Virus record (IMG/VR): IMGVR_UViG_3300010935_000116
Location: 1-45,084 of that record
Direction: 5' to 3' (one strand)
Length of the DNA: 45,084 nt
From: a virus
Shown here in pieces: positions 4,506 to 45,084 of the stretch (the first letter of the stretch is position 1; the number at the start of each line of letters is the position of its first letter). The notes beneath the pieces are model-generated. The model was not told the DNA's origin. It ran no database searches and saw only the letters and a list, made by a program, of their open reading frames with translations. A program made the position numbers and the translations under genes.

Positions 4506-7500
4506 TAGCTGTAAGTTGTTTTAACGTTCTTATATACTTCTACCATATTACCGTTCCCGTCTGTGTAGCGTTGTCTTTCGCCACGCTTTCGAATATCGGT
4601 TAAATCGTTTTCAATTTGCTTAAGGTCGGGGCTATCGTAACCCACATTAACCAGCGGCGGCATTTGTTCGGCTGGGATAAAGGCATTGGCATACGTTTGC
4701 TCAAATGTCCCAGCGTTTAAGCTTTTGATTATGTTAGGCAGTACGCCCTTGTACTTACGTGTATTACGCTTATTTATAATAGCCATAGCTTCGCCGCCCT
4801 CTGCTGTACGTTGCTTACCGCCGCTGGTTGTACCTATTGGAATATCATTACCGCTGCTGTGGCTGCCACCGTCTAAAAATTCAAGTCCACCGTCCCCGTA
4901 TTTTTCCTTAGCCGCAGACTTGGCTTTTATTTTACTGGCTGCATAACTTGCCCACATTACACCCACGGCAGCAACTGCCAAAGCTGTACCTACAATCGGG
5001 ATAGCAGATAAGGATTTCCAAATATTAACCGATGCCGTAATAAGCCCGCTTATTTGCATAGCTGTATCAATAGCAGCCTGCGCCTTTTGTGCCTTTTCCT
5101 TTTCCTTAAGTGCTGCGGCTTCGTTTTTCTTTTTAAGTTCCAGTTCACGCTGTGCGGTAAGTACATTATTTGCGTACCCGTTATTCCTTGCCGTGATTTC
5201 AGCTTGGTAACGGTTTTCTGCTGCGCTGCTTTCTTCCTGTGCTGCCTGTACTGCTACCTCGGCAGCTTGTACACGTGCTTCCATAAAGGCACGGACGTTA
5301 TCCATTGCAAAGCTTAAGCTTTCGCTTACTGCTGCCTTTTGTTCATCGTCCAGCTTAAGCCCTACCATACTGTAAATATCCTGCTGCCCTTGCCCAGCTG
5401 TGGCAATTTCGCCCTCTATTTTCTTAATGGTGTTTTTAATTGTAGCCACCTGCAAAGCACTAAGCTGCCCCTCTATCTTTTCGTTAAGCTTAAGTACTGC
5501 CAGTAAACGGGCTTTTTCTGCTTCTAAGCGCAGGCGTGTCTTTTCTGCTTCCGTAACCTTAAGCAAATCAATTTCACTATTTGCAAGGTCTTGCTGCTGG
5601 TCGATACCCTGCATACCAGCACTAAAAGCACTTTTGTTTTTCTGCTCGGCATCCCTTTTGTTCTTAGCAATTAGATCATCGGCAGCCTTAGCTTCTGCAA
5701 TAGCTTTATCGCTCCACTTTTTACTTATTTCAAAACGCTTGCGGCTTTCGTATTCATCCAGCAAATTAACGTCCAAACCATATTCAGCCCACAGCTTGCG
5801 CTTTTCCTTAAGTTCCATATCCAGCAAAGCCAAGTCCTTGCTTTCGCTGTCTGCCATTATATCCACGGTAGCCTTTTCCTTTTTACTATTACGGCTTTCC
5901 TTTTCTTTTAGGTTTGCGCCTACTATGCCCAGTATTGCATTTTTCTTATCCTCTAAGGCTTTTATATCGTCCTGTATGCCTTTGGCTTGGCTGCGGCTGT
6001 TTGCGCCCTTAAGCTTAGCCCGTAGGTTGCTTATTTCTTGGTCTATTTGTCCCACAGACTTAAGCCCGCCCTTAATGGTATCATCCAGCTGCTTGTTAAA
6101 TTCATCTTGCGAGCCAGTAAGCGCATCCTTGGTCGCTTTGTCTGCACGTGCTAATTCAGCAGTAAACGCATTACTGAAAGCACTTGCTGCATCCTTACCG
6201 TTTTGTACTATGGTGTCTTTTACGTTTTTAAACGCTGCTTTAATGTTCTTAAAGTTTTCTACTGGGTTAAGTGTAAGCTTAATGTCGCCTATCTGCCTAA
6301 CTGATTTAACAAAGTTACCCACGTAATTAAAGTACTCTTTGAATACAGCTATTACGCCCGTTATTACCGCACCCATTACCTTAATAAAAAATGATGCCCT
6401 ATCTATACTATCAGCAAACTGCCCAGCAAAGAACGCCGATACTGTGGCAATTACGCCCTCGCCATCTTCAATCGTAAGCACCAAGTTATCCCACGCAATA
6501 CCTATACGGCTAAACTGTGCATCTAACTTACCGCTGGCTGCCTTAAATTCCTTATCTAAACTACCCGCTGCGTTATTAACCGTATCAAGTGAGCCAGCAA
6601 GTACATCGTAACCCTTTGTCGCAAGCGATGCAATTACACGCTGGTCTCTAATACCAATAATACCCAAGTTTTCCAGCTGCTCGTTTACGCTGCCACCTGC
6701 TTCGTTTACATTATTTAAACCAGTAACAAAGCCGCCAAATACAGCAGCAGGGTCTTGGTTAAATTGTTCTTTTAATTGCTCTACTGTAAGCCCTGTAAGC
6801 TTAGCTAAGGCATCCACGTTCTTACCTGTACGTATAGCCTTTTCCATTATACCCAAAGTACGCCCGATAGTTGACCCAGTTAATTCTGCTTCAAGTCCTA
6901 CGGCTTTGGTAGCGGTTGCATACGCCAGTACAGTCTTACGCCCGATATTGTACTGCCCTGTATTCTGTGCTATTGCTGTGGCGTTGGTAAGTATTTCGTT
7001 TTCTGTGGCTGCAAAGTTGTTACCAAGGTTTACAATTTCATCCCCGAACTGCTCAATGTTTTCCACACCGCCGTCGGTAAGCGTTAAAAGCCTTGCAATA
7101 TTACTCGCCCCTTGGTCGCCTGCAATATCTGATGCAGTTTCCAACTTGGCTAAACTTTCAGTAAATAGCAGGATATTAGCCCTACCCTTTACGCCCAGCT
7201 GTCCCGCCACCTTGGCATATTCCAAAAGCGCAGGCGTTCCAACTGTTTTAAGCTTACGGGATAAATCCACTATGTCCTGCCCCAAGTCCCTTAATTCCTC
7301 GCCGCTTAGGTTTGCAGTTTTACCCACATCAATAAGCCCGCTGTTAAATTCTATTACGGTGTCTTTATTGGCTGCAATAAGGTAAAACAAAGCACCCACA
7401 GCTGCCAGTATCATACCCACAGGCGTAAGTAAAAAGGCAAGTGTAGCCTTTCCGAAATTCATTACCGCAGTAGTAAGCACCTTAAACGGCTTATCTGATT

Positions 7501-8952: not shown

Positions 8953-8966
8953 ACCGCTCTCGTTTG

Positions 8967-11121: not shown

Positions 11122-11144
11122 ATTTCAAATGTACTATAAATTAA

Positions 11145-14857: not shown

Positions 14858-15397
14858 TTACTTATTGGTTTTAGCTTCTTTTTTGGCTTCCGCTTTTGCC
14901 TTATCAACTCCACACAAAGCGTATTCGCCTGTCGGGTCGTGTAATAAATCTACCGAGTAGCCTAAGCCTACACTATTGCGCTCAAAGTTCGCAAATGCTT
15001 TCGGCGAAAATACTTGCAGCTGTGGCTTACTTTGCCTGTCCCCGCTGTTCTTATCAAAGCTTTTAACCTCGATACGTGCGTGGTAGCTGCTTTCAGTCCC
15101 TGGCTCGGGTACGAAAGTATCTTTTGTATGCTTTAATAAATCCGTTTTGCGGGACTTTTCAAGCTTTGCAGCTTTTTCTGCTGCTGCCTTTTCTTCCGCA
15201 GCTTTTTTATCTGCTGCCGCTTTTTCTTCTGCTGCCTTTGCATCGGCTGCCTTTTTTGCTGCTGCTGCTTCTGCATCAGCTGCTGCTTTTTCGTCAGCTG
15301 CTTTTTTCTTTGCCGCTGCTGCTTCGTCTGCCTTAGCTTTCGCCGCTGCCTGCTCCGCCGTCGGCTGGGGCTGGTTTGGTGTATTCTGTTTTGCCAT
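14858..15397 (-). CDS. Ala/Lys/Glu-rich low-complexity protein with a C-terminal globular domain
   Basis: 179 aa. Residues about 15-80 read AAAKAKADEAAAAKKKAADEKAAADAEAAAAKK... The start lies 65 nt inside the 3' end of the portal ORF. Confidence 0.55.
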   Translation of the reverse strand: MAKQNTPNQPQPTAEQAAAKAKADEAAAAKKKAADEKAAADAEAAAAKKAADAKAAEEKAAADKKAAEEKAAAEKAAKLEKSRKTDLLKHTKDTFVPEPGTESSYHARIEVKSFDKNSGDRQSKPQLQVFSPKAFANFERNSVGLGYSVDLLHDPTGEYALCGVDKAKAEAKKEAKTNK

Positions 15398-18657: not shown

Positions 18658-18669
18658 ATAAGCAAATAT

Positions 18670-18697
18670 AAAAAAGCCCCAGCTGTGTGCAGGGGCT
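18670..18697 (-). terminator. Rho-independent terminator
   Basis: The minus transcript reads AGCCCCUGC-ACACA-GCUGGGGCU with one internal mismatch, followed by UUUUU. It lies 12 nt after the ATPase stop. Confidence 0.7.
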
Positions 18698-21597: not shown

Positions 21598-21639
21598 AAC
21601 TGCTCTCGGTATTATGCCCCATCGGGGCGGGTTAAAATT

Positions 21640-22110: not shown

Positions 22111-22296
22111 TTAGTAAAGTTCTATATTGTTGTTTTCAAATAATTCCATACAGTCGTTCCATTGCTCGTCGTCCGTAAATATAAATATTGTACTGCCGTC
22201 GTTTTCAAAAGAAAAGCCTGCATCATTTAGTAATTCGTGTGCTGCTTTTGCATCACGTACACTTACTTCTATCGGGTTTAAATTTGTTGCTACCAT
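22111..22296 (-). CDS. Small strongly acidic protein, first gene after promoter repeat A
   Basis: 61 aa, strongly acidic by eye (D/E far outnumber K/R). It is preceded by the conserved CGAGAGC leader. Confidence 0.55.
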   Translation of the reverse strand: MVATNLNPIEVSVRDAKAAHELLNDAGFSFENDGSTIFIFTDDEQWNDCMELFENNNIELY

Positions 22297-22375
22297 TTTG
22301 CTCTCGGTTTTAATTATGGTGCTAAATTAAACTTTTTCTTTAATTGTCAAAACTTTCAAGAGTTAAAATTTTATT
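22297..22375 (-). promoter_or_regulatory. Promoter/operator-like repeat, copy A
   Basis: The minus strand reads TTTTGACAATTAAAGAAAAAGTTTAATTTAGC...AAAACCGAGAGCAAAATG. It has TTG(ACA), 18 nt, then TAATTTAG, plus the inverted repeat AATTAAA-N7-TTTAATT. Copies B and C are near-identical. Confidence 0.6.
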
Positions 22376-23905
22376 TTAATTTGCTCGGCGCACACCTTTC
22401 TTTTTAGGTCTGCCAAAATATTCGCCACAGGCATACCCTAATAAATCCACATATTCATCGTGCGAAGCTACTGGGTAACTTCCTATCTGCCCTATAAAGG
22501 TTTCGTTCCAGCCGCCTTTAATCAAGTACACACGCCCAGCTTCTACCCGTGGGCTTAATTCTGAAAGCCTTGCATCCTTGCCGTCCGTTACCAGCGACCC
22601 CTTTATTAGTATTGCGCTTAAGTCTGTTACTTCCTTAAGCATCTGCTCTAAACTATGCCCCGAAGCTTTTGGCTCAATATGTACACGGCTGCGGGACGTT
22701 GTACCCTGTATATCGCAATACCTTGGCACTTCTTTTAAAAGTTCGGGCATTTCTAAGTAATCGCTTTTTGCGTTCTTTATATACAGCCTATTGCGTTTTC
22801 TATCAAATCCGCAAACCATTAACCCAGTAGGGTCATTAACTGTTTTCTTAGTGTAAGCACCATCTACCCATAAATCCCATACAAGCCCGTCGGGTACATC
22901 GTAGGCATCCACATACTGCCACCATTCGTCTTTCACTTTTCCGCCGCCTTTTGGCGTTGGGTCTTGGTCGTACTGCCCTGCAAAGTCATAAACTCCCAGC
23001 AGCGTAGCCTGTTCCGATAATATCTTTTCGTTTAACCTGTTTGCATCCAGTAAACCATTTACGTAGTGCTTTCGTAGTTCGGGCGGTCTTACGTCCCCTG
23101 TGCTGCGTGCTGGTAGTTTTATATGCCTAATATTATCGGATATGCTTAACATATAGCCCGTCGGGTCTTCCTCGTGCAGCCGCTGCATTATCCCGATGGT
23201 GGGTGTAACTTCCTTATCCTTTTTACGGGTAGGCAGCACCTTACTTACGTGCCTGTTCGCTTTCTTACGTACCTGCTCGCTGTTTGCTTTTTCTACATCA
23301 ATTAAATCATCCCACAGTATAAGGTGGGCGTGCTTTCCAATAATCGCACCGCCTACAGAAGTAAAGAACCTTACGCCCCCGAAGTTATTACGCCAGTCCT
23401 TTTCGTTGTCTTTGGTAAAGGTTAAGTACTTGCCAAATTTTTGATAAATAGCAGGCTGAAAATATTTGTTCCAGCGTTCGCTTTTTATAACGTCCTTACT
23501 TTTCAAAGACTGGTCAACGCTTAAGTCGTTACTGTGCGTACTGGTTATAATTACAAAGTGCGGGGCGTGTACCCAAATCCAGCAGCCAAGCATTTGCGAT
23601 ACTATTGTGGATTTTGAAAGCCCTGGCGGTATATTAATAATAATATCGTTATCCTTTGGCTCTTTACGCATAGCCCTTTCGGCTACTTTTTGCAATTCAT
23701 CGCACAGGTATTTTATATGCCAGTTTAATTCCAGTTCGTTGTCTTGGTTTATTATGTCCCAAAATTCAACAAAGAACTCAAAAAAGCTGGCTTTGCATTC
23801 CGATGCCCTTATAGCGTATAGCTTTTCAAGTTCACGGGCTGCGCTTTCCAGCTGCTGCTTTTTTTTTAATATAAGTTTTTCATCATTCATCCGTGCTGCT
23901 TGCAT
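22376..23905 (-). CDS. terL: Terminase large subunit
   Basis: Walker A-like PPGLSKST, Walker B-like HLILWDDLID and the MQRLHEEDPTGY block, with a C-terminal nuclease-sized domain. It follows the small subunit. An alternative ATG lies at 23890. Confidence 0.85.
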   Translation of the reverse strand: MQAARMNDEKLILKKKQQLESAARELEKLYAIRASECKASFFEFFVEFWDIINQDNELELNWHIKYLCDELQKVAERAMRKEPKDNDIIINIPPGLSKSTIVSQMLGCWIWVHAPHFVIITSTHSNDLSVDQSLKSKDVIKSERWNKYFQPAIYQKFGKYLTFTKDNEKDWRNNFGGVRFFTSVGGAIIGKHAHLILWDDLIDVEKANSEQVRKKANRHVSKVLPTRKKDKEVTPTIGIMQRLHEEDPTGYMLSISDNIRHIKLPARSTGDVRPPELRKHYVNGLLDANRLNEKILSEQATLLGVYDFAGQYDQDPTPKGGGKVKDEWWQYVDAYDVPDGLVWDLWVDGAYTKKTVNDPTGLMVCGFDRKRNRLYIKNAKSDYLEMPELLKEVPRYCDIQGTTSRSRVHIEPKASGHSLEQMLKEVTDLSAILIKGSLVTDGKDARLSELSPRVEAGRVYLIKGGWNETFIGQIGSYPVASHDEYVDLLGYACGEYFGRPKKKGVRRAN

Positions 23906-32390: not shown

Positions 32391-32442
32391 TTTGCTCTCG
32401 GTTTGATAGGGGCTAAGTTAAACATTTTTTTTAATTGTCCTA
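32391..32442 (-). promoter_or_regulatory. Promoter/operator-like repeat, degenerate copy D
   Basis: The minus strand reads GGACAATTAAAAAAAATGTTTAACTTAGCCCCTATCAAACGAGAGCAAAATG. The layout matches copies A-C but the upstream TTG is missing. Confidence 0.4.
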
Positions 32443-33386: not shown

Positions 33387-33394
33387 TGCTCTCG

Positions 33395-37209: not shown

Positions 37210-38282
37210 TACTTACGTGGCTTTTGGTTTTCCTTTTTACGCTTTTTAACCAGTTCGCTTAATGTCATTTCGGTAACATTAGCAGCAAGCCCAGCCTTAA
37301 GGTCGATTACACCGTTTACGATTGTTACGGTATTATTTCGTCTATCCCTTTCAACGCCTGCAAGTTCCACCAAGTGCTTAAGCTTATACCTGCTTTTGCT
37401 TTCGGTTTGGTCTTTTAGGTTATACGTCGGGGTCGTGGTGCGCCAGTCTTTCGGCGACCAGTTGTAAACCCTTTCAACTGGCTTATTCGGGAAATGCGCC
37501 TGCCACATTTCGCAATAAGCTTGCAGCTGTATTTCGTGTTCCTCATAAAAGCCCTTACGCCCACTTTTAAAATCTACTATTGCCGTAAAGGTTTGCAGCT
37601 GCTTGGTTTCTTTTGGCTGCCCAGCACGTGCGCCAGTTTTAAAGTGTTCCCCGAAAAAGCCTTTTACTTCTACACTCATTTCGCATACCAAATCAATAGC
37701 ACCAGCATAACCGTCCGTCGGGTGCGCCAGTACAATTTCAATCGCCAGCGGCTTAACATCGCATTCAATCATAAACTGCGCAAACGCCAGCACGTCCTTT
37801 TTAATTTCGTCGGCGTGGTTTATAAAGCTACTCGGCAGGCTTTCCTTTTCGATATAAGCCTTAAGCCTTGCCTTTACTTTTTCAGTATCGTAAGTGCGGT
37901 TAATTAATAATTCTGCGATTTCTGTGTGCATAAAAGTACCATAGTCTGCACGCTCTTGGGCATATACACGGCTTTCATCGTAACCCATATCTGCAATCCA
38001 TTTGATAAGGTGCGGGCTGGTAGGCATAGTCTGCTTTATCATCGTAGTAACCGAGGTAAAGAAATTCGGCTGCCCCTGCTCGTCAAAAGTGTAATAATAG
38101 CGGTGGCTTGAACCTTGTAACCTGTATATGGTTTCGGGTGCTTCCACTAAAGCCTTATCATTAAAAAATACTGCAAGCATTTCCTCGCTTGTAAGCCCTG
38201 GGGCTAATTCATAAACGCCCTCGGGTGCATCTTGCATCATTGCATCAAAGGCTGCGCTGTTCTGTTCGCTCTCGTTTTTCAT
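37209..38282 (-). CDS. PD-(D/E)XK (RecB/Cas4-like) exonuclease
   Basis: GTFMHTEIAE, GYAGAIDLVCE, AIVDFKSG (D-x-K) and EIQLQAYCEM (QxxxY) occur in the canonical order. Confidence 0.7.
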   Translation of the reverse strand: MKNESEQNSAAFDAMMQDAPEGVYELAPGLTSEEMLAVFFNDKALVEAPETIYRLQGSSHRYYYTFDEQGQPNFFTSVTTMIKQTMPTSPHLIKWIADMGYDESRVYAQERADYGTFMHTEIAELLINRTYDTEKVKARLKAYIEKESLPSSFINHADEIKKDVLAFAQFMIECDVKPLAIEIVLAHPTDGYAGAIDLVCEMSVEVKGFFGEHFKTGARAGQPKETKQLQTFTAIVDFKSGRKGFYEEHEIQLQAYCEMWQAHFPNKPVERVYNWSPKDWRTTTPTYNLKDQTESKSRYKLKHLVELAGVERDRRNNTVTIVNGVIDLKAGLAANVTEMTLSELVKKRKKENQKPRK

Positions 38283-38284
38283 TG

Positions 38285-38449
38285 TTAATCTGTTTTAATT
38301 GTAAATAAAAGTATGCTCAATCCGCTGCATACAATAGCGGTATAATAATGCCAGTAAGCACCGTAAAAAAATGCGCCTATAAAAGCAGCTATTCCCAGCA
38401 GCAAAAATATAGCTGCAAAAATTCTATTTCCTATCTGTTCCGCTTTCAT
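38285..38449 (-). CDS. Small membrane protein
   Basis: I start it at ATG 38449 (MKAEQIGNRIFAAIFLLLGIAAFIGAFFYGAYWHYYTAIVCSGLSILLF). It has two TM-like segments. Confidence 0.45.
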   Translation of the reverse strand: MKAEQIGNRIFAAIFLLLGIAAFIGAFFYGAYWHYYTAIVCSGLSILLFTIKTD

Positions 38450-38729
38450 ACTTATCAAGTTTTTTGCTATCCATTGGCTTAATGCCAAATAAAAAGTTTG
38501 CATCTACCCCCGTGGCTTTGCATATTTTGCGCACCCAAGCAGGTGCTACTCTACTGGTCTTTCCAGTAATAAGGTTTGATATGTTTACTACTTGCGTTTT
38601 AGGTTTTGCATCTGCAAAAAGTAATTCGCCTAAGTCCTTTTTTTGTAAGCTTTGGGTGCTTTTCGCCTTGGTGGCTTCGTGGTAGTCCAACGCTTCATCA
38701 ATGCGCAGGGCTGGCTTTTGTTTTTCCAT
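38424..38729 (-). CDS. XRE-like helix-turn-helix regulator (candidate)
   Basis: I start it at internal ATG 38729 (MEKQKPALRIDEAL...). KKDLGELLFADAKPKTQVVNISNLITGKTSRVAPAWVRKICKATGVDANFLFG fits an HTH_XRE layout. Confidence 0.55.
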   Translation of the reverse strand: MEKQKPALRIDEALDYHEATKAKSTQSLQKKDLGELLFADAKPKTQVVNISNLITGKTSRVAPAWVRKICKATGVDANFLFGIKPMDSKKLDKYESGTDRK

Positions 38730-38739
38730 TTTTAAAATA

Positions 38740-38877
38740 TTAGTTATCGTGAATATATCCTTTACGGCAGTTGCTATCACAAAAAGAGCCATTACACGGT
38801 TCGCCGCAGTAATCGCATTCGTTTTCCTTTTCGTCGTCGTAAGGGGTTGCTGTCTTCCAGCTGTCATAATTTGCCAT
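38740..38877 (-). CDS. Small Cys-rich ORF (45 aa), first gene after promoter repeat B
   Basis: My own translation gives MANYDSWKTATPYDDEKENECDYCGEPCNGSFCDSNCRKGYIHDN. The ATG lies 1 nt after the CGAGAGC leader, unlike the track ORF start at 38867. Confidence 0.5.
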   Translation of the reverse strand: MANYDSWKTATPYDDEKENECDYCGEPCNGSFCDSNCRKGYIHDN

Positions 38878-38960
38878 CGCTCTCGGTTTTAATTATACCG
38901 CTAAATTAAACTTTTTCTTTAATTAACAAAACTTTCTTCTGTTAAAGATTTATTTTAAAT
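38878..38960 (-). promoter_or_regulatory. Promoter/operator-like repeat, copy B
   Basis: The minus strand reads AAGTTTTGTTAATTAAAGAAAAAGTTTAATTTAGCGGTATAATTAAAACCGAGAGCGATG. Confidence 0.6.
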
Positions 38961-38990: not shown

Positions 38991-39061
38991 CTATCGCAGA
39001 TATACCGAGAGCGTTCGGAAATATTGGAGTGAGACAAATATAGTATTTAAACTTAATTAAG

Positions 39062-40867: not shown

Positions 40868-40960
40868 TTTTCGCTCTCGGTTACATTATTAATATACGGC
40901 TAAATTAAACTTTTTCTTTAATTGTCAAAACTTTTGCGAGTTAAAATTTATCTTTAATTG
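40868..40960 (-). promoter_or_regulatory. Promoter/operator-like repeat, copy C
   Basis: The minus strand reads AAAGTTTTGACAATTAAAGAAAAAGTTTAATTTAGCCGTATATTAATAATGTAACCGAGAGCGAAAAATG. It follows the lysis-module terminator. Confidence 0.6.
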
Positions 40961-41027
40961 TTATTTTTTTACTTTCTGCGATTTAAGGGCATTTCTTTTA
41001 ATTGACTATACTTTTATTATTAAGCAT

Positions 41028-42934: not shown

Positions 42935-45084
42935 TTAAAATTCTTTATTAATATTTCTAAATATAGCATCTGCAATCTGCAAATAACCCTCTGTCGCTGG
43001 GTGTACTCCATTTGTACCTGCCTGCTCTGTATCTGTACTATTTCTACTATTTACAGCACGCTGCCCCTTTGGCATATTGTAAAGCGTATCAAATTGCGCC
43101 GAAACATTAACAAATTCCACAAAATCGCTATAAGCTGGCTCATTTGCCCAAGCTTGGTAAGCAAGGTTAAGCCCGAATACTGTACGTGCTAAAGCAAAAT
43201 AATTACCGTAATTACTATTACCGTCGCCGTAATTTTGTGCCAGCCCGCCGTCTATACTTGGCAGCTGTATTCCCATTATTTTAACCTTAGCCGCAGGATA
43301 TTGCTGGTGTAATTTATCTACAAAGGTTTTAGCATCTGCAATAAGCCCAGCGTGGTCTGCTGCCGTTGCTCTATCGCCTGCCATACCATTCCACGTAAGT
43401 AGTACACATACATAATCAATATCCACAAAGCCATTAATCCCCACGTAATTAGTGAAATCAAGCTGCCCCGTACTACTGTTCCAAAACTTATTCACGGCTG
43501 TACCGCTATTATTCTCTACACCTGTGTAGTTAATAGCTGCCGTATGGTTTGCGCCCGATACGTGTGTTAATACGCCCGAAGCTGGTGCGTTTGCTGTGTG
43601 CTGGTATCTACTAAATACCAAAGCTGTGCCACTTGTAACTGCTTCAAGCTTCCACTCGTTACCGTTTGCATCTACCCAAATACTTACCAAGTCCGAACTA
43701 TCTTTATCGTGTGCCGCCACGGTAAAATCTACGTCGGGGCTTGTAGTTTCCTGTATGTACCAGCCCCAAGTTTTACCGCCGTAACCCTCGTACTGGTTTC
43801 CGTTCCCTTGGTCTACCGTACCAATTAAATCAACATTATTTATTCCAATTCCTGCAAGGCTGCCTGTGTTACCAGTAAGCAGCCTGTGTAATTCGCCAGT
43901 CCATATTCCGCCAGCGGTTAAGCTGTCGCCTACGCACAGGATGCGCTTAATACTTGCAGGGCTTACACCTGCTGCGCTTACTTCTACGTTACAACTTTCA
44001 GAAGCTACAAGTAAGCCGTCTTTCGTATAAAGCGATATAGTAAAGGTTTTTGTGCCTGTGCTGGTAGGTGTGAAATCGTAGTATCTTGGGTATTGCCTGC
44101 CGCCTAAATTACCAGTTACTTTAATGTTATAAATGAACGGGTCTATGGCTTCAATCATTCCCCTAAAAAATAGCTGCTGTCTATAACCTACTACGGCATC
44201 AAAATTATCGGGTAAAACAATTCTCGGCACAGAACTTTCTGCGTTTTCTAAAACCGTTATCCTGTTGCTAAGCGGTAGCAATTCAGATAAAGACTTTTTT
44301 ATAACAGGGTTTACCATTAGTAAATGCTCAACTGGCACAGCTGGATTACCTGTAAAGGTAGCCCAAGTCGTGTCTATTATATTAGTAGTGTAATATGATG
44401 CGCCTGCGTGGTTTGGCTGCGCCCCTTTTACTTCGCCACCATAAGCCACTTCCTTATTTTCATTATAAAAAATATAACCTACAAAATAAGTAGCACCTGT
44501 AAAACTGTTATCATCTAAAGTAATAATATTCCCGTTTGCTGGGTCTGTTAAAGGGAAATCAACCTGCGCTAAAGTGTTTAAATTCTTATCTACACGTATA
44601 AAGTCCGATACTGCCACAGGTGTAGCATCTGCCTTATCGTTTTTCACAAATATTTTCATAAAAGACCAGCGATCTGCATCTGCCACAGTACCACGTCGAA
44701 CACTTGTTAATCTAAGCGCATTAAAAGAAACTCCTATTTTATTTAAATCTGAACCCCAACCAGCAAAAGGGCTTGACCTTGTATTACCAGCCGACGGCGT
44801 TGGTGTTATTACTGAACTAATATTATCATAAGAAACCGTATCAATAAAAAGGCTTAATATGTCTTCATTTGCCGTTACAAATGAGTTAATATAATTTATT
44901 GCATCCTGTGTAAATTCAAGGTCTTTACTTGCGTTAAATATTTGCGCATAAAATGGTCTTGTCTGATTGCTTGTTACAGCACTTGTAACGCTGTCGTTTA
45001 TGTTTTTTGTAGTCTTGTATTTTGTAGATACATTACCGTCATTAGAACCCACGCCGCTGCCTGCATAAACACCAACCCTGCCGT
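42935..45084 (-). CDS. Tail fibre with C-terminal SGNH/GDSL hydrolase domain, 3' part of the wrap-around ORF
   Basis: The ORF is open to the window end. The track start at 45052 is an internal GTG. GDSL block I is RILCVGDSLTAGG (GDS at 43922..43930) and block V is GTNGVHPATEGY near the C-terminus. Confidence 0.8.
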   Translation of the reverse strand, partial: GRVGVYAGSGVGSNDGNVSTKYKTTKNINDSVTSAVTSNQTRPFYAQIFNASKDLEFTQDAINYINSFVTANEDILSLFIDTVSYDNISSVITPTPSAGNTRSSPFAGWGSDLNKIGVSFNALRLTSVRRGTVADADRWSFMKIFVKNDKADATPVAVSDFIRVDKNLNTLAQVDFPLTDPANGNIITLDDNSFTGATYFVGYIFYNENKEVAYGGEVKGAQPNHAGASYYTTNIIDTTWATFTGNPAVPVEHLLMVNPVIKKSLSELLPLSNRITVLENAESSVPRIVLPDNFDAVVGYRQQLFFRGMIEAIDPFIYNIKVTGNLGGRQYPRYYDFTPTSTGTKTFTISLYTKDGLLVASESCNVEVSAAGVSPASIKRILCVGDSLTAGGIWTGELHRLLTGNTGSLAGIGINNVDLIGTVDQGNGNQYEGYGGKTWGWYIQETTSPDVDFTVAAHDKDSSDLVSIWVDANGNEWKLEAVTSGTALVFSRYQHTANAPASGVLTHVSGANHTAAINYTGVENNSGTAVNKFWNSSTGQLDFTNYVGINGFVDIDYVCVLLTWNGMAGDRATAADHAGLIADAKTFVDKLHQQYPAAKVKIMGIQLPSIDGGLAQNYGDGNSNYGNYFALARTVFGLNLAYQAWANEPAYSDFVEFVNVSAQFDTLYNMPKGQRAVNSRNSTDTEQAGTNGVHPATEGYLQIADAIFRNINKEF
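44846..45084. repeat. Terminal direct duplication, right copy (identical to 1..239)
   Basis: Direct reading of both ends. Confidence 0.95.

Follow-up and report, generated by a model that had tools for sequence, protein, structure and literature searches.

Four copies of a predicted promoter-operator-leader module and a candidate antisense RNA in a relative of Croceibacter phage P2559S

The viral record IMGVR_UViG_3300010935_000116 from IMG/VR, analyzed here over its full length of 45,084 nt (hereafter the window), carries a ~90-bp noncoding module in three full copies and one degenerate copy, each at the head of a gene. Bases 1–239 of the window are an exact repeat of 44846–45084 (239 bp), indicating that the assembly closes into a circle (or is terminally redundant); its unit of 44,845 bp has a G+C content of 41.8%. 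A relative with ~91% identity in patches is Croceibacter phage P2559S, a siphovirus whose host is the marine flavobacterium Croceibacter atlanticus. All genes of the window lie on the minus strand, and the module elements are therefore read on the minus (coding) strand, as are all other features described below. The whole analysis was computational; the anatomy of the module, its conservation, the statistics, and the sequence complementarities were read directly from the sequences.

The full copies occupy positions 22297–22379, 38878–38958, and 40868–40957 (c22, c38, and c40, respectively), and the degenerate copy occupies 32391–32434 (c32). A 36-nt core, GCTAAATTAAACTTTTTCTTTAATTGTCAAAACTTT, is present without mismatches at 22321–22356 and 40899–40934 and with two mismatches at 38900–38935, and was matched in none of 100 shuffles. 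A repeat finder returned an 80-nt family at 22300, 38879, and 40878 (76 to 100% identity) and a 31-nt family that adds 32409–32439 at 87% identity. The four places and near-identical core reported in a first-pass annotation of this DNA are thus borne out. In the full copies, a distal palindrome is followed after ~19 nt by a TTG and, 4 nt further, by a proximal palindrome that runs into a putative −7 box, TAATTTAG; 14 to 19 nt after this comes a short leader box, ACCGAGAGC, and then, after 1 to 5 nt, an ATG. The same annotation had read every copy as TTTTG-N18-TAATTTAG with a perfect inverted repeat, AATTAAA-N7-TTTAATT. Both descriptions fit the three full copies but not c32, which has TAACTTAG as its −7 box and AATTAAA-N7-TTTAACT as its palindrome, and lacks the −33 TTG and the distal palindrome. 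In the P2559S equivalent of c32, the −7 box has decayed further to TAACTTTA.

Small open reading frames (ORFs) lie downstream of each copy, in agreement with the earlier proposal that the copies head blocks of small genes. As also proposed, three of them follow a terminator or the end of a gene module: intrinsic terminators precede c38 (38991–38964) and c40 (41051–41033), and c22 abuts the terminase stop codon at 22376. The terminator before c38 is present but forms part of a conserved noncoding unit at 39042–38960 (see below). A supposed tandem relic at 40978–41008 is weak and not convincing as a fifth copy, as it contains only the left half-site, CAATTAAA, with no N7 palindrome and no −7 box, and was missed by the weight-matrix scan. 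An interpretation of the repeats as origin iterons was ruled out by their dispersal and by the location of each copy at the head of a gene, and one as tRNAs or miniature inverted-repeat transposable elements (MITEs) by their fixed syntenic positions.

Diverged relatives were obtained as viral contigs with a 75 to 79% identical terminase and as sequences reached via the neighboring helix-turn-helix (HTH) protein, giving a set of 31 unique elements from 11 related genome sequences. The module was found at syntenic sites in P2559S and about ten metagenomic relatives. P2559S likewise has four copies, in places matching those in the window, and its deposited record has no feature annotation on the repeated module or on the noncoding unit. 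More distant terminase relatives (L014 to L019) possess neither palindrome nor box. Distant homologues of the HTH protein in contigs of bacterial metagenome-assembled genomes (MAGs; L065 to L067) show canonical TAnnTTTG boxes without palindrome or leader box, which confines the module to the P2559S-like group. Two pattern scans of viral contigs were set aside. An exact pattern for the promoter core gave, beyond P2559S, three single matches (L004 to L006) in unrelated coding sequence, and a looser promoter-plus-box pattern gave 38 loci, mostly chance matches in GC-rich coding DNA, the real ones being confined to P2559S-like contigs.

The first part of the module resembles a host promoter. In c40, the −33 TTG (part of TTTTG) is located at 40926–40928 and the −7 box at 40900–40907 (TTG-N18-TAATTTAG), with a predicted transcription start site (TSS) at about 40895 and a 28-nt 5′ untranslated region (5′UTR). 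The corresponding elements of c38 are at 38927–38929 (within 38906–38929) and 38901–38908, with a predicted TSS at about 38896 and a 19-nt 5′UTR. Those of c22 are at 22348–22350 and 22322–22329 (predicted TSS at about 22317), and c32 has its −7 box, TAACTTAG, at 32413–32420 (predicted TSS at 32408). The box-to-TSS geometry and the −7 consensus were taken from Flavobacterium johnsoniae, whose sigma-A −7 element TAnnTTTG has near-invariant T-12, A-11, T-8, T-7, T-6, and G-5 and is separated from the start site by ~5 nt; a weak −33 element goes with it (PMC6847099). The −33 TTTG is required for full activity but is not essential (PMC2483708). The spacing from TTG to the −7 box is N18 in c22, c38, and c40 and N19 to N20 in relatives. 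Both TAATTTAG and TAACTTAG match five of the six near-invariant F. johnsoniae positions, while orthologous −7 boxes in the V1127, V10, and L064 lineages read TAAATTTG and match the Bacteroidota consensus exactly (6/6). The 31 elements, aligned on the −7 box from −45 to +1, give the consensus .....aA...TTt....aaTTAAA.a.AAaGTTTAA.TTaGc...a. The predicted 5′UTRs are 18 to 28 nt long, with leaders predicted to be largely unpaired; the median 5′UTR of Flavobacterium psychrophilum is 24 nt (PMC9723704). A point against the assignment is that the −7 boxes of the window have A at −6, where T is near-invariant in F. johnsoniae. Taken together, the TTG spacing, the 5′UTR length, and the perfect consensus in relatives give good in silico support to the Bacteroidota-type architecture suggested by the first-pass annotation, and we consider it highly probable that the module contains a Bacteroidota-type host promoter. 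A sigma-70-type promoter scan gave no more matches than shuffled sequence, and that model does not apply to this phylum.

Perfect −7 boxes were also seen 4 to 5 nt from start codons at 18663–18670 and 11126–11133. The former, TATATTTG-cttat-ATG, lies directly 3′ of a terminator, and the latter reads TACATTTG-aaat-ATG. Boxes so close to the ATG suggest leaderless mRNAs for some structural genes.

The palindromes form the second part. In c40, the proximal palindrome AATTAAA-N7-TTTAATT is located at 40903–40923, its core TTAAA-N7-TTTAA (40905–40921) spanning −26 to −10, and the distal TTAAA-N7-TTTAA is at 40941–40957, centered at about −54; a distal palindrome is found in all nine c40-type elements of relatives. 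The proximal and distal palindromes of c38 are at 38906–38922 and 38942–38958, the latter overlapping the T-run of the upstream terminator, and those of c22 are at 22327–22343 and 22363–22379, the latter overlapping the stop codon of the terminase large subunit. A single palindrome at 32418–32434 is present in c32. In the genome, TTAAA-N7-TTTAA occurs eight times, as compared with 0.93 occurrences expected under a first-order model (maximum of 4 in 300 simulations), while the other spacings from N2 to N12 occur zero to three times each. Seven of the eight occurrences lie inside the four copies, two each in c40, c38, and c22 and one in c32. The paired palindromes of the window are exactly 36 bp apart, those of the nine c40-type elements of relatives, all of which are paired, are 32 to 36 bp apart. 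In some relatives, a third site follows about 125 bp farther upstream. Across the 31 elements, the conservation of TTAAA at −26 to −22 equals that of the −7 box, and the 7-nt spacer between the arms is variable. The spacing between palindrome and −7 box is constant, and that between TTG and palindrome ranges from 4 to 7 nt.

These features could in principle belong to plain strong host promoters, in which the palindrome and the upstream AT tract are spacer or UP-like features, the copies are homogenized by recombination, and no dedicated regulator exists. AT-rich motifs near −18 and −28 are general in F. johnsoniae promoters (PMC6847099), so the palindrome may owe part of its signal to the promoter itself. 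Moreover, the 3′ arm shares bases with the −7 box, which constrains it, the regulator of the palindrome is only a candidate, and the copies within a genome look homogenized, as by gene conversion. However, the arms are specific pentamers at exactly N7 and not a general AT-rich tract, and their TTAAA is conserved like the −7 box. The distal palindrome sits away from any −7 box and is free of its constraint, and the palindrome is present neither at the candidate small RNA (sRNA) promoter described below nor at the other predicted −7 boxes of these phages. Plain promoters are therefore an unlikely account of the whole pattern, and the palindrome is, on balance, more plausibly an operator bound by a protein. 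The operator that the first-pass annotation placed in the spacer thus gains from the invariant arms, the fixed distance to the −7 box, the distal copy, and the over-representation, but it is still a predicted site only. Copies within a genome are 87% identical and orthologous copies 73%; for the spacer only, the values are 89% between copies in one genome and 62% between orthologous copies. This greater likeness within genomes is compatible with gene conversion as well as with coadaptation to a genome-specific trans-acting factor.

The candidate binder of the palindrome is a 101-aa, putatively XRE-type HTH protein encoded at 38424–38729 by the second gene after c38. Its gene is syntenic downstream of the c38-type copy in all relatives (64 to 99% identity), in the order Cys-rich ORF, HTH gene, small ORF, and exonuclease gene. 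The P2559S counterpart of the protein is gp41. The AlphaFold model has as its top Foldseek neighbors EspR, C.Csp231I, the N-terminal domain of TP901-1 CI, and SinR, all HTH/XRE-type regulators. Several observations weigh against this assignment. A Pfam search with the protein gave no match, its matches to PHROG families of the transcriptional repressor/regulator category are weak (E of about 1e-3), the pLDDT of the model is 72.5, and all of its Foldseek matches are weak (E of at least 0.4). The identification of this protein, named in the first-pass annotation as an HTH protein, as XRE-type is accordingly weak, and we regard its binding to the palindrome as a tentative proposal. A PDB sequence search with the HTH alignment was rejected, its matches to designer PPR repeats being spurious. 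Pfam searches of 20 early proteins revealed no sigma factor, RNA polymerase, or known RNA-binding regulator. The first gene after c38 encodes a 45-aa Cys-rich protein (38740–38877; CxxC...C...C, zinc-ribbon-like), which is always the first product downstream of the c38-type module in relatives and has a PHROG of unknown function as its sole match; it is a possible second regulator. In one relative (L060, 7920–8183), an HU/IHF-like gene (PF00216) is found within the c40-type early operon. The window has no such gene, whose product could bear on the architecture of AT-rich promoters.

The third part of the module is the leader box. In c40, ACCGAGAGC is located at 40873–40881, 5 nt before the ATG of ORF 40867–40619; in c38, ACCGAGAGC(G) is at 38879–38887, 1 nt before the ATG of ORF 38877–38740; in c32, the box is at 32394–32402, 3 nt before the ATG of ORF 32390–32052; and in c22, it is at 22300–22308, 3 nt before the ATG of ORF 22296–22111. 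Four further boxes have no promoter module. One, TACCGAGAGC, is at 21611–21602, 4 nt before the ATG of ORF 21597. The other three read CGAGAGC and are found at 33388–33394, 1 nt before the ATG of ORF 33386 (a homologue of a Holliday junction resolvase by the P2559S annotation), at 8956–8962, 3 nt before the ATG of ORF 8952, and at 38268–38274, inside the exonuclease ORF (start at 38282) at +9 to +15. All eight occurrences of GAGAGC on the coding strand of the window thus fall in translation initiation regions, seven of them 1 to 5 nt upstream of an ATG. The position of the exonuclease box is kept in nine of ten related genomes examined (the exception being V1127), despite the availability of synonymous codons. 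Among ten related sequences, 30 of 34 occurrences of CCGAGAGC have an ORF ATG 0 to 8 nt downstream, against a background of about 6%. The distance from the −7 box to the leader box, by contrast, ranges from 11 to over 40 nt. With a few nucleotides to the ATG and a variable distance to the promoter, or no promoter module at all, the box tracks the start codon and not the promoter. More AT-rich relatives also have GAGAGC inside genes, which weighs against a strict association. This link between the box and start codons is new, and the box is likely to be a start-associated, post-transcriptional signal. A second start-associated motif, ACTTTAC, was rejected as too weak (four of eight in the window and one of nine in P2559S).

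A hairpin at 21628–21616, GCCCC-GAU-GGGGC, precedes the box of gene 21597 by 6 nt. In relatives it reads GUGCC-AAU-GGCAC, GUGCC-GAU-GGCAC, or GUACC-GAU-GGUAC, that is, with compensatory changes at two stem positions, and it may serve for processing or for protein binding.

Alternatively, the box might work in cis as a signal for translation that the host ribosome or an initiation factor reads in place of the missing Shine-Dalgarno (SD) sequence, in which case any complement elsewhere would be incidental. Its tight placement before the AUG, between a TAAAA element and an A-rich −3 region, and its confinement to start regions in the window are what such a signal would show. From what is generally known of the 3′ end of Bacteroidota 16S rRNA, and not from the rRNA of this host, GAGAG could form a 5-bp wobble helix with the extreme 3′ CUUUC, but in the wrong register; pairing would be limited to that tract, and the AUG would follow too closely. 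Direct pairing of the box with rRNA thus seems unlikely. In addition, the box is found on only about 8 of about 70 genes and the exonuclease copy is downstream of the AUG, and a cis signal would leave unexplained a single conserved complement of the box inside a unit with its own promoter and terminator. We therefore consider a cis signal improbable, and the box may rather be a post-transcriptional mark with a partner in trans.

That complement lies in the conserved noncoding unit between c40 and c38. The unit, at 39042–38960, is predicted to encode an sRNA of ~65 to 70 nt, with a −7 box, TATATTTG, at 39042–39035 and a predicted TSS at A39030. Its order is TATATTTG, 4 nt, ACTCC, a hairpin CCGA-(A/C)CGCUC-UCGG (with an ACGCUC loop in the window), UAUCUGCGA, a strong terminator hairpin (38991–38964, 12 pairs), and a U-run. 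The anti-box, CGCTCTCGGT, is at 39013–39004. The reverse complement of the box, GCTCTCGG, occurs once on the coding strand in all eight scanned related sequences that span the c40–c38 junction; a single junction copy is also present in L057 and L064, and none was found in two sequences that do not span the junction. The perfect −7 box TATATTTG is kept in all nine lineages aligned, with differing flanking bases. The 5′ part of the block is invariant, while the terminator stems are wholly different between lineages yet always fold. The 69-nt RNA folds with −25.9 kcal/mol (z = −4.4). The block contains no ORF above 21 aa, and Rfam returned nothing over this region at gathering thresholds, only subthreshold noise. 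The sRNA segment CGCUCUCGGU can pair with ACCGAGAGC(G) over 10 bp at c40 and c38, 11 bp at gene 21597, and 9 bp at c22 and c32, and over 7 to 8 bp at the three other boxes. A single anti-box, complementary to the boxes and enclosed in a conserved −7-box-plus-terminator block, led us to propose a small antisense RNA. The presence of a complement of the box in a conserved noncoding unit is new, and pairing of the sRNA with the box is a mechanism that we put forward tentatively.

Some evidence weighs against pairing. The candidate sRNA promoter has no clear −33 element, and no covariation between box and anti-box was seen, both being invariant in most lineages. The variant boxes of L069 (ACCGAGAGa) and L063 (ACaGAGAGC) are uncompensated in the seed. 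RNAalifold on the sRNA set yielded only the invariant 4-bp stem and no measure of covariation, because MAFFT misaligned the lineage-specific terminators. When all start regions were ranked by duplex energy with the sRNA, the box genes came out on top, but this ranking follows from the shared motif and is not independent evidence, and a shuffled-seed control indicated that an energy threshold alone does not discriminate.

The lack of covariation would also suit a box that acts as DNA, i.e., as an orientation-specific protein site that blocks or modulates transcription near gene starts in the manner of the stoperators of Cluster A mycobacteriophages, with the reverse copy at 39013–39004 being just another site. 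The motif is short and asymmetric and lies in one orientation at several gene boundaries, and two conserved, uncharacterized small proteins (the 45-aa Cys-rich protein and the HTH protein) are encoded nearby. On the other hand, the box follows the start codon, at 1 to 6 nt, in preference to the promoter. The exonuclease copy covers codons 3 to 5, within the range where pairing can block initiation, and the reverse copy resides in a unit with its own predicted promoter and terminator. A DNA site thus appears quite improbable. An sRNA-like unit of unrelated sequence was also seen in a comparable position in a 44.9-kb MAG contig (L067, about 4575–4680), where TTATATTTG, about 75 nt, and a terminator lie upstream of a distant relative of the HTH gene.

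Taken together, we propose that the phage places a composite expression module with three layers at the head of four transcription units. The first layer would be a host sigma-A promoter with TTG at −33, a gap of 18 to 20 nt, and TA(A/T)(A/T)TT(A/T)G at −12 to −5, from which transcription would start ~5 nt after the −7 box to give an unstructured leader of 18 to 28 nt. The second would be the 17-bp palindrome at −26 to −10, usually with a second copy 32 to 36 bp upstream, serving as the operator of a phage-encoded dimeric DNA-binding protein. Binding at the proximal site would occlude RNA polymerase, and the best candidate for the protein, the 101-aa XRE-like product encoded downstream of the copy at 38878, would be autoregulated. 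In the third, the box ACCGAGAGC, 1 to 6 nt upstream of the AUG, would mark a set of mRNAs for post-transcriptional control. A 9- to 10-nt complement, CGCUCUCGGU, in the first hairpin of a ~70-nt RNA made from 39030–38960 would pair with the box and block ribosome access. Transcription starts, protein binding, sRNA expression, and the direction of regulation are inferred throughout. The composite promoter-operator-leader module is the interpretation we favor, with some reserve. That a ~70-nt antisense RNA targets the starts of about eight genes, including the first gene of every operon headed by the promoter repeat, is a conjecture about which we are more doubtful than hopeful. The first-pass annotation of the whole repeat as promoter plus operator therefore captured the promoter-proximal half but overlooked the leader box, its complement in the sRNA, and the distal palindrome.

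The data suggest a two-layer switch of a kind not yet described for phages of this phylum. If correct, a post-transcriptional regulon internal to the phage would be superimposed on a common promoter under operator control. To our knowledge, Bacteroidota do not use SD-led initiation and largely lack Hfq; the box and its single complement suggest how a phage could control translation when there is no SD sequence to hide. How phages of marine Flavobacteriia regulate their genes has hardly been studied, and the module offers concrete promoter, operator, and leader elements for a cultivable pair, P2559S and C. atlanticus HTCC2559, in which the predictions are directly testable. The compact promoter-leader unit is also a possible expression part for Flavobacteriia.

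The copies may in addition have a history as mobile regulatory cassettes, like the promoter early stem-loops (PeSLs) of T4-type phages, with their identity maintained as a substrate for recombination. Two copies combine a terminator with a promoter, paralogs resemble each other more closely than orthologs do, and c22-type copies are directly followed by different genes in different relatives. The homology that joins the window to P2559S ends precisely at the ATG behind the c22 box, where an unrelated gene begins. Yet only one of about a dozen homology breakpoints with P2559S falls at an element, the elements keep four syntenic positions in all relatives, and their conservation is patterned by position (arms, −7 box, and leader box) and not uniform. 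Mobility as the main explanation is thus rather unlikely, and it would be compatible with the regulatory interpretation. At the c22 breakpoint itself (window 22111–22548 versus P2559S 1516–1681), the first gene after the module (61 aa) is unique to the window, which looks like a cassette replacement at the module edge; together with the variable genes that follow, this implies that the modules may also act as recombination joints. A repeat of another kind, with a period of 15/18 nt, lies at 15140–15352 inside ORF 14858–15397; it probably corresponds to a low-complexity segment in a protein of structural or scaffold-like type.

Several known systems share parts of this design. Like Bacteroidota sigma-A promoters, the module has a −7 box at −12 to −5, a TTG ~19 nt upstream, an AT-rich spacer, and a short leader with no SD sequence; it differs in the A at −6 of the window copies, and in the specific palindrome and conserved leader box, neither of which is known for host promoters. 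T4-type PeSLs are numerous, occur in hyperplastic regions, and are defined by a stem-loop and a sigma-70 promoter (PMC2839356, PMC4122927). They resemble the module as repeated units of ~50 to 100 bp that combine a terminator with a promoter (early in PeSLs), head small variable genes, and can coincide with a homology breakpoint, whereas the module occurs four times, at fixed syntenic sites, and includes an operator-like palindrome and a leader box. In the operators of controller (C) proteins of restriction-modification systems and of phage Cro/CI, too, a promoter with two nearby palindromic sites lies upstream of the gene for a small XRE-type HTH protein. In our case, the structural similarity of the protein is weak (E of at least 0.4), the half-sites are purely A/T, and the operator heads four operons and not one.

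The c4 RNA of phages P1 and P7 and the CI RNA of P4 are small phage antisense RNAs encoded beside the operon they control. A short loop in these RNAs is complementary to repeated sites located at or close to translation starts, through which they act on ribosome-binding regions. They arise by processing of the target transcript and control immunity in temperate phages of enterobacteria. The candidate RNA likewise adjoins an operon that it would control and has a short loop complementary to start-region sites. Unlike these RNAs, it would have eight dispersed targets, a separate predicted promoter, and a host without SD-led initiation, and it is known as a sequence prediction only.

The closest analogue of the module is provided by the start-associated sequence (SAS) and extended SAS (ESAS) of Cluster K mycobacteriophages. 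The SAS is a 13-bp asymmetric motif located 3 to 9 bp upstream of 11 to 19 start codons in one orientation, and about half of its copies are extended into an ESAS by a ~50-bp upstream unit with a putative promoter and an inverted repeat (PMC3203893, PMC11373665). Its role was still called unverified in 2025 (PMC12699233). In both systems, a short asymmetric motif lies a few nucleotides before the ATG of a subset of genes in one orientation, and a subset of copies (here four of eight boxes) is extended upstream by a putative promoter and inverted repeat. Both are phage-group specific and combine many start-associated copies with one reverse copy in noncoding DNA. In Mycobacterium phage Anaya, we found 16 forward SAS copies and one reverse copy (record positions 59870–59882; L068, 34871–34883), which lies in a 385-bp noncoding gap after a terminator-like hairpin. 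This single reverse SAS parallels the anti-box and suggests an antisense RNA partner for the SAS. The consensus sequences, however, are unrelated (GGGATAGGAGCCC versus ACCGAGAGC). The SAS has an SD core, AGGAG, that the box lacks, and it occurs in 11 to 19 copies as compared with 5 to 8 for the box. The inverted repeat of the module has arms of 5 to 7 bp with N7 inside the promoter spacer while the ESAS arms are 17 bp long, and the host phylum and promoter type differ as well. Since sequence, SD content, and host phylum all differ, the module is an analogue and not a member of the SAS/ESAS family, and the SAS supplies no mechanism for it. In the opposite direction, if the scheme proposed here is true, it could also explain the Cluster K SAS motifs, unexplained since 2011; an antisense partner is a specific hypothesis for SAS/ESAS in a system for which RNA-seq data, published for phages Adephagia and ZoeJ, and genetic tools already exist.

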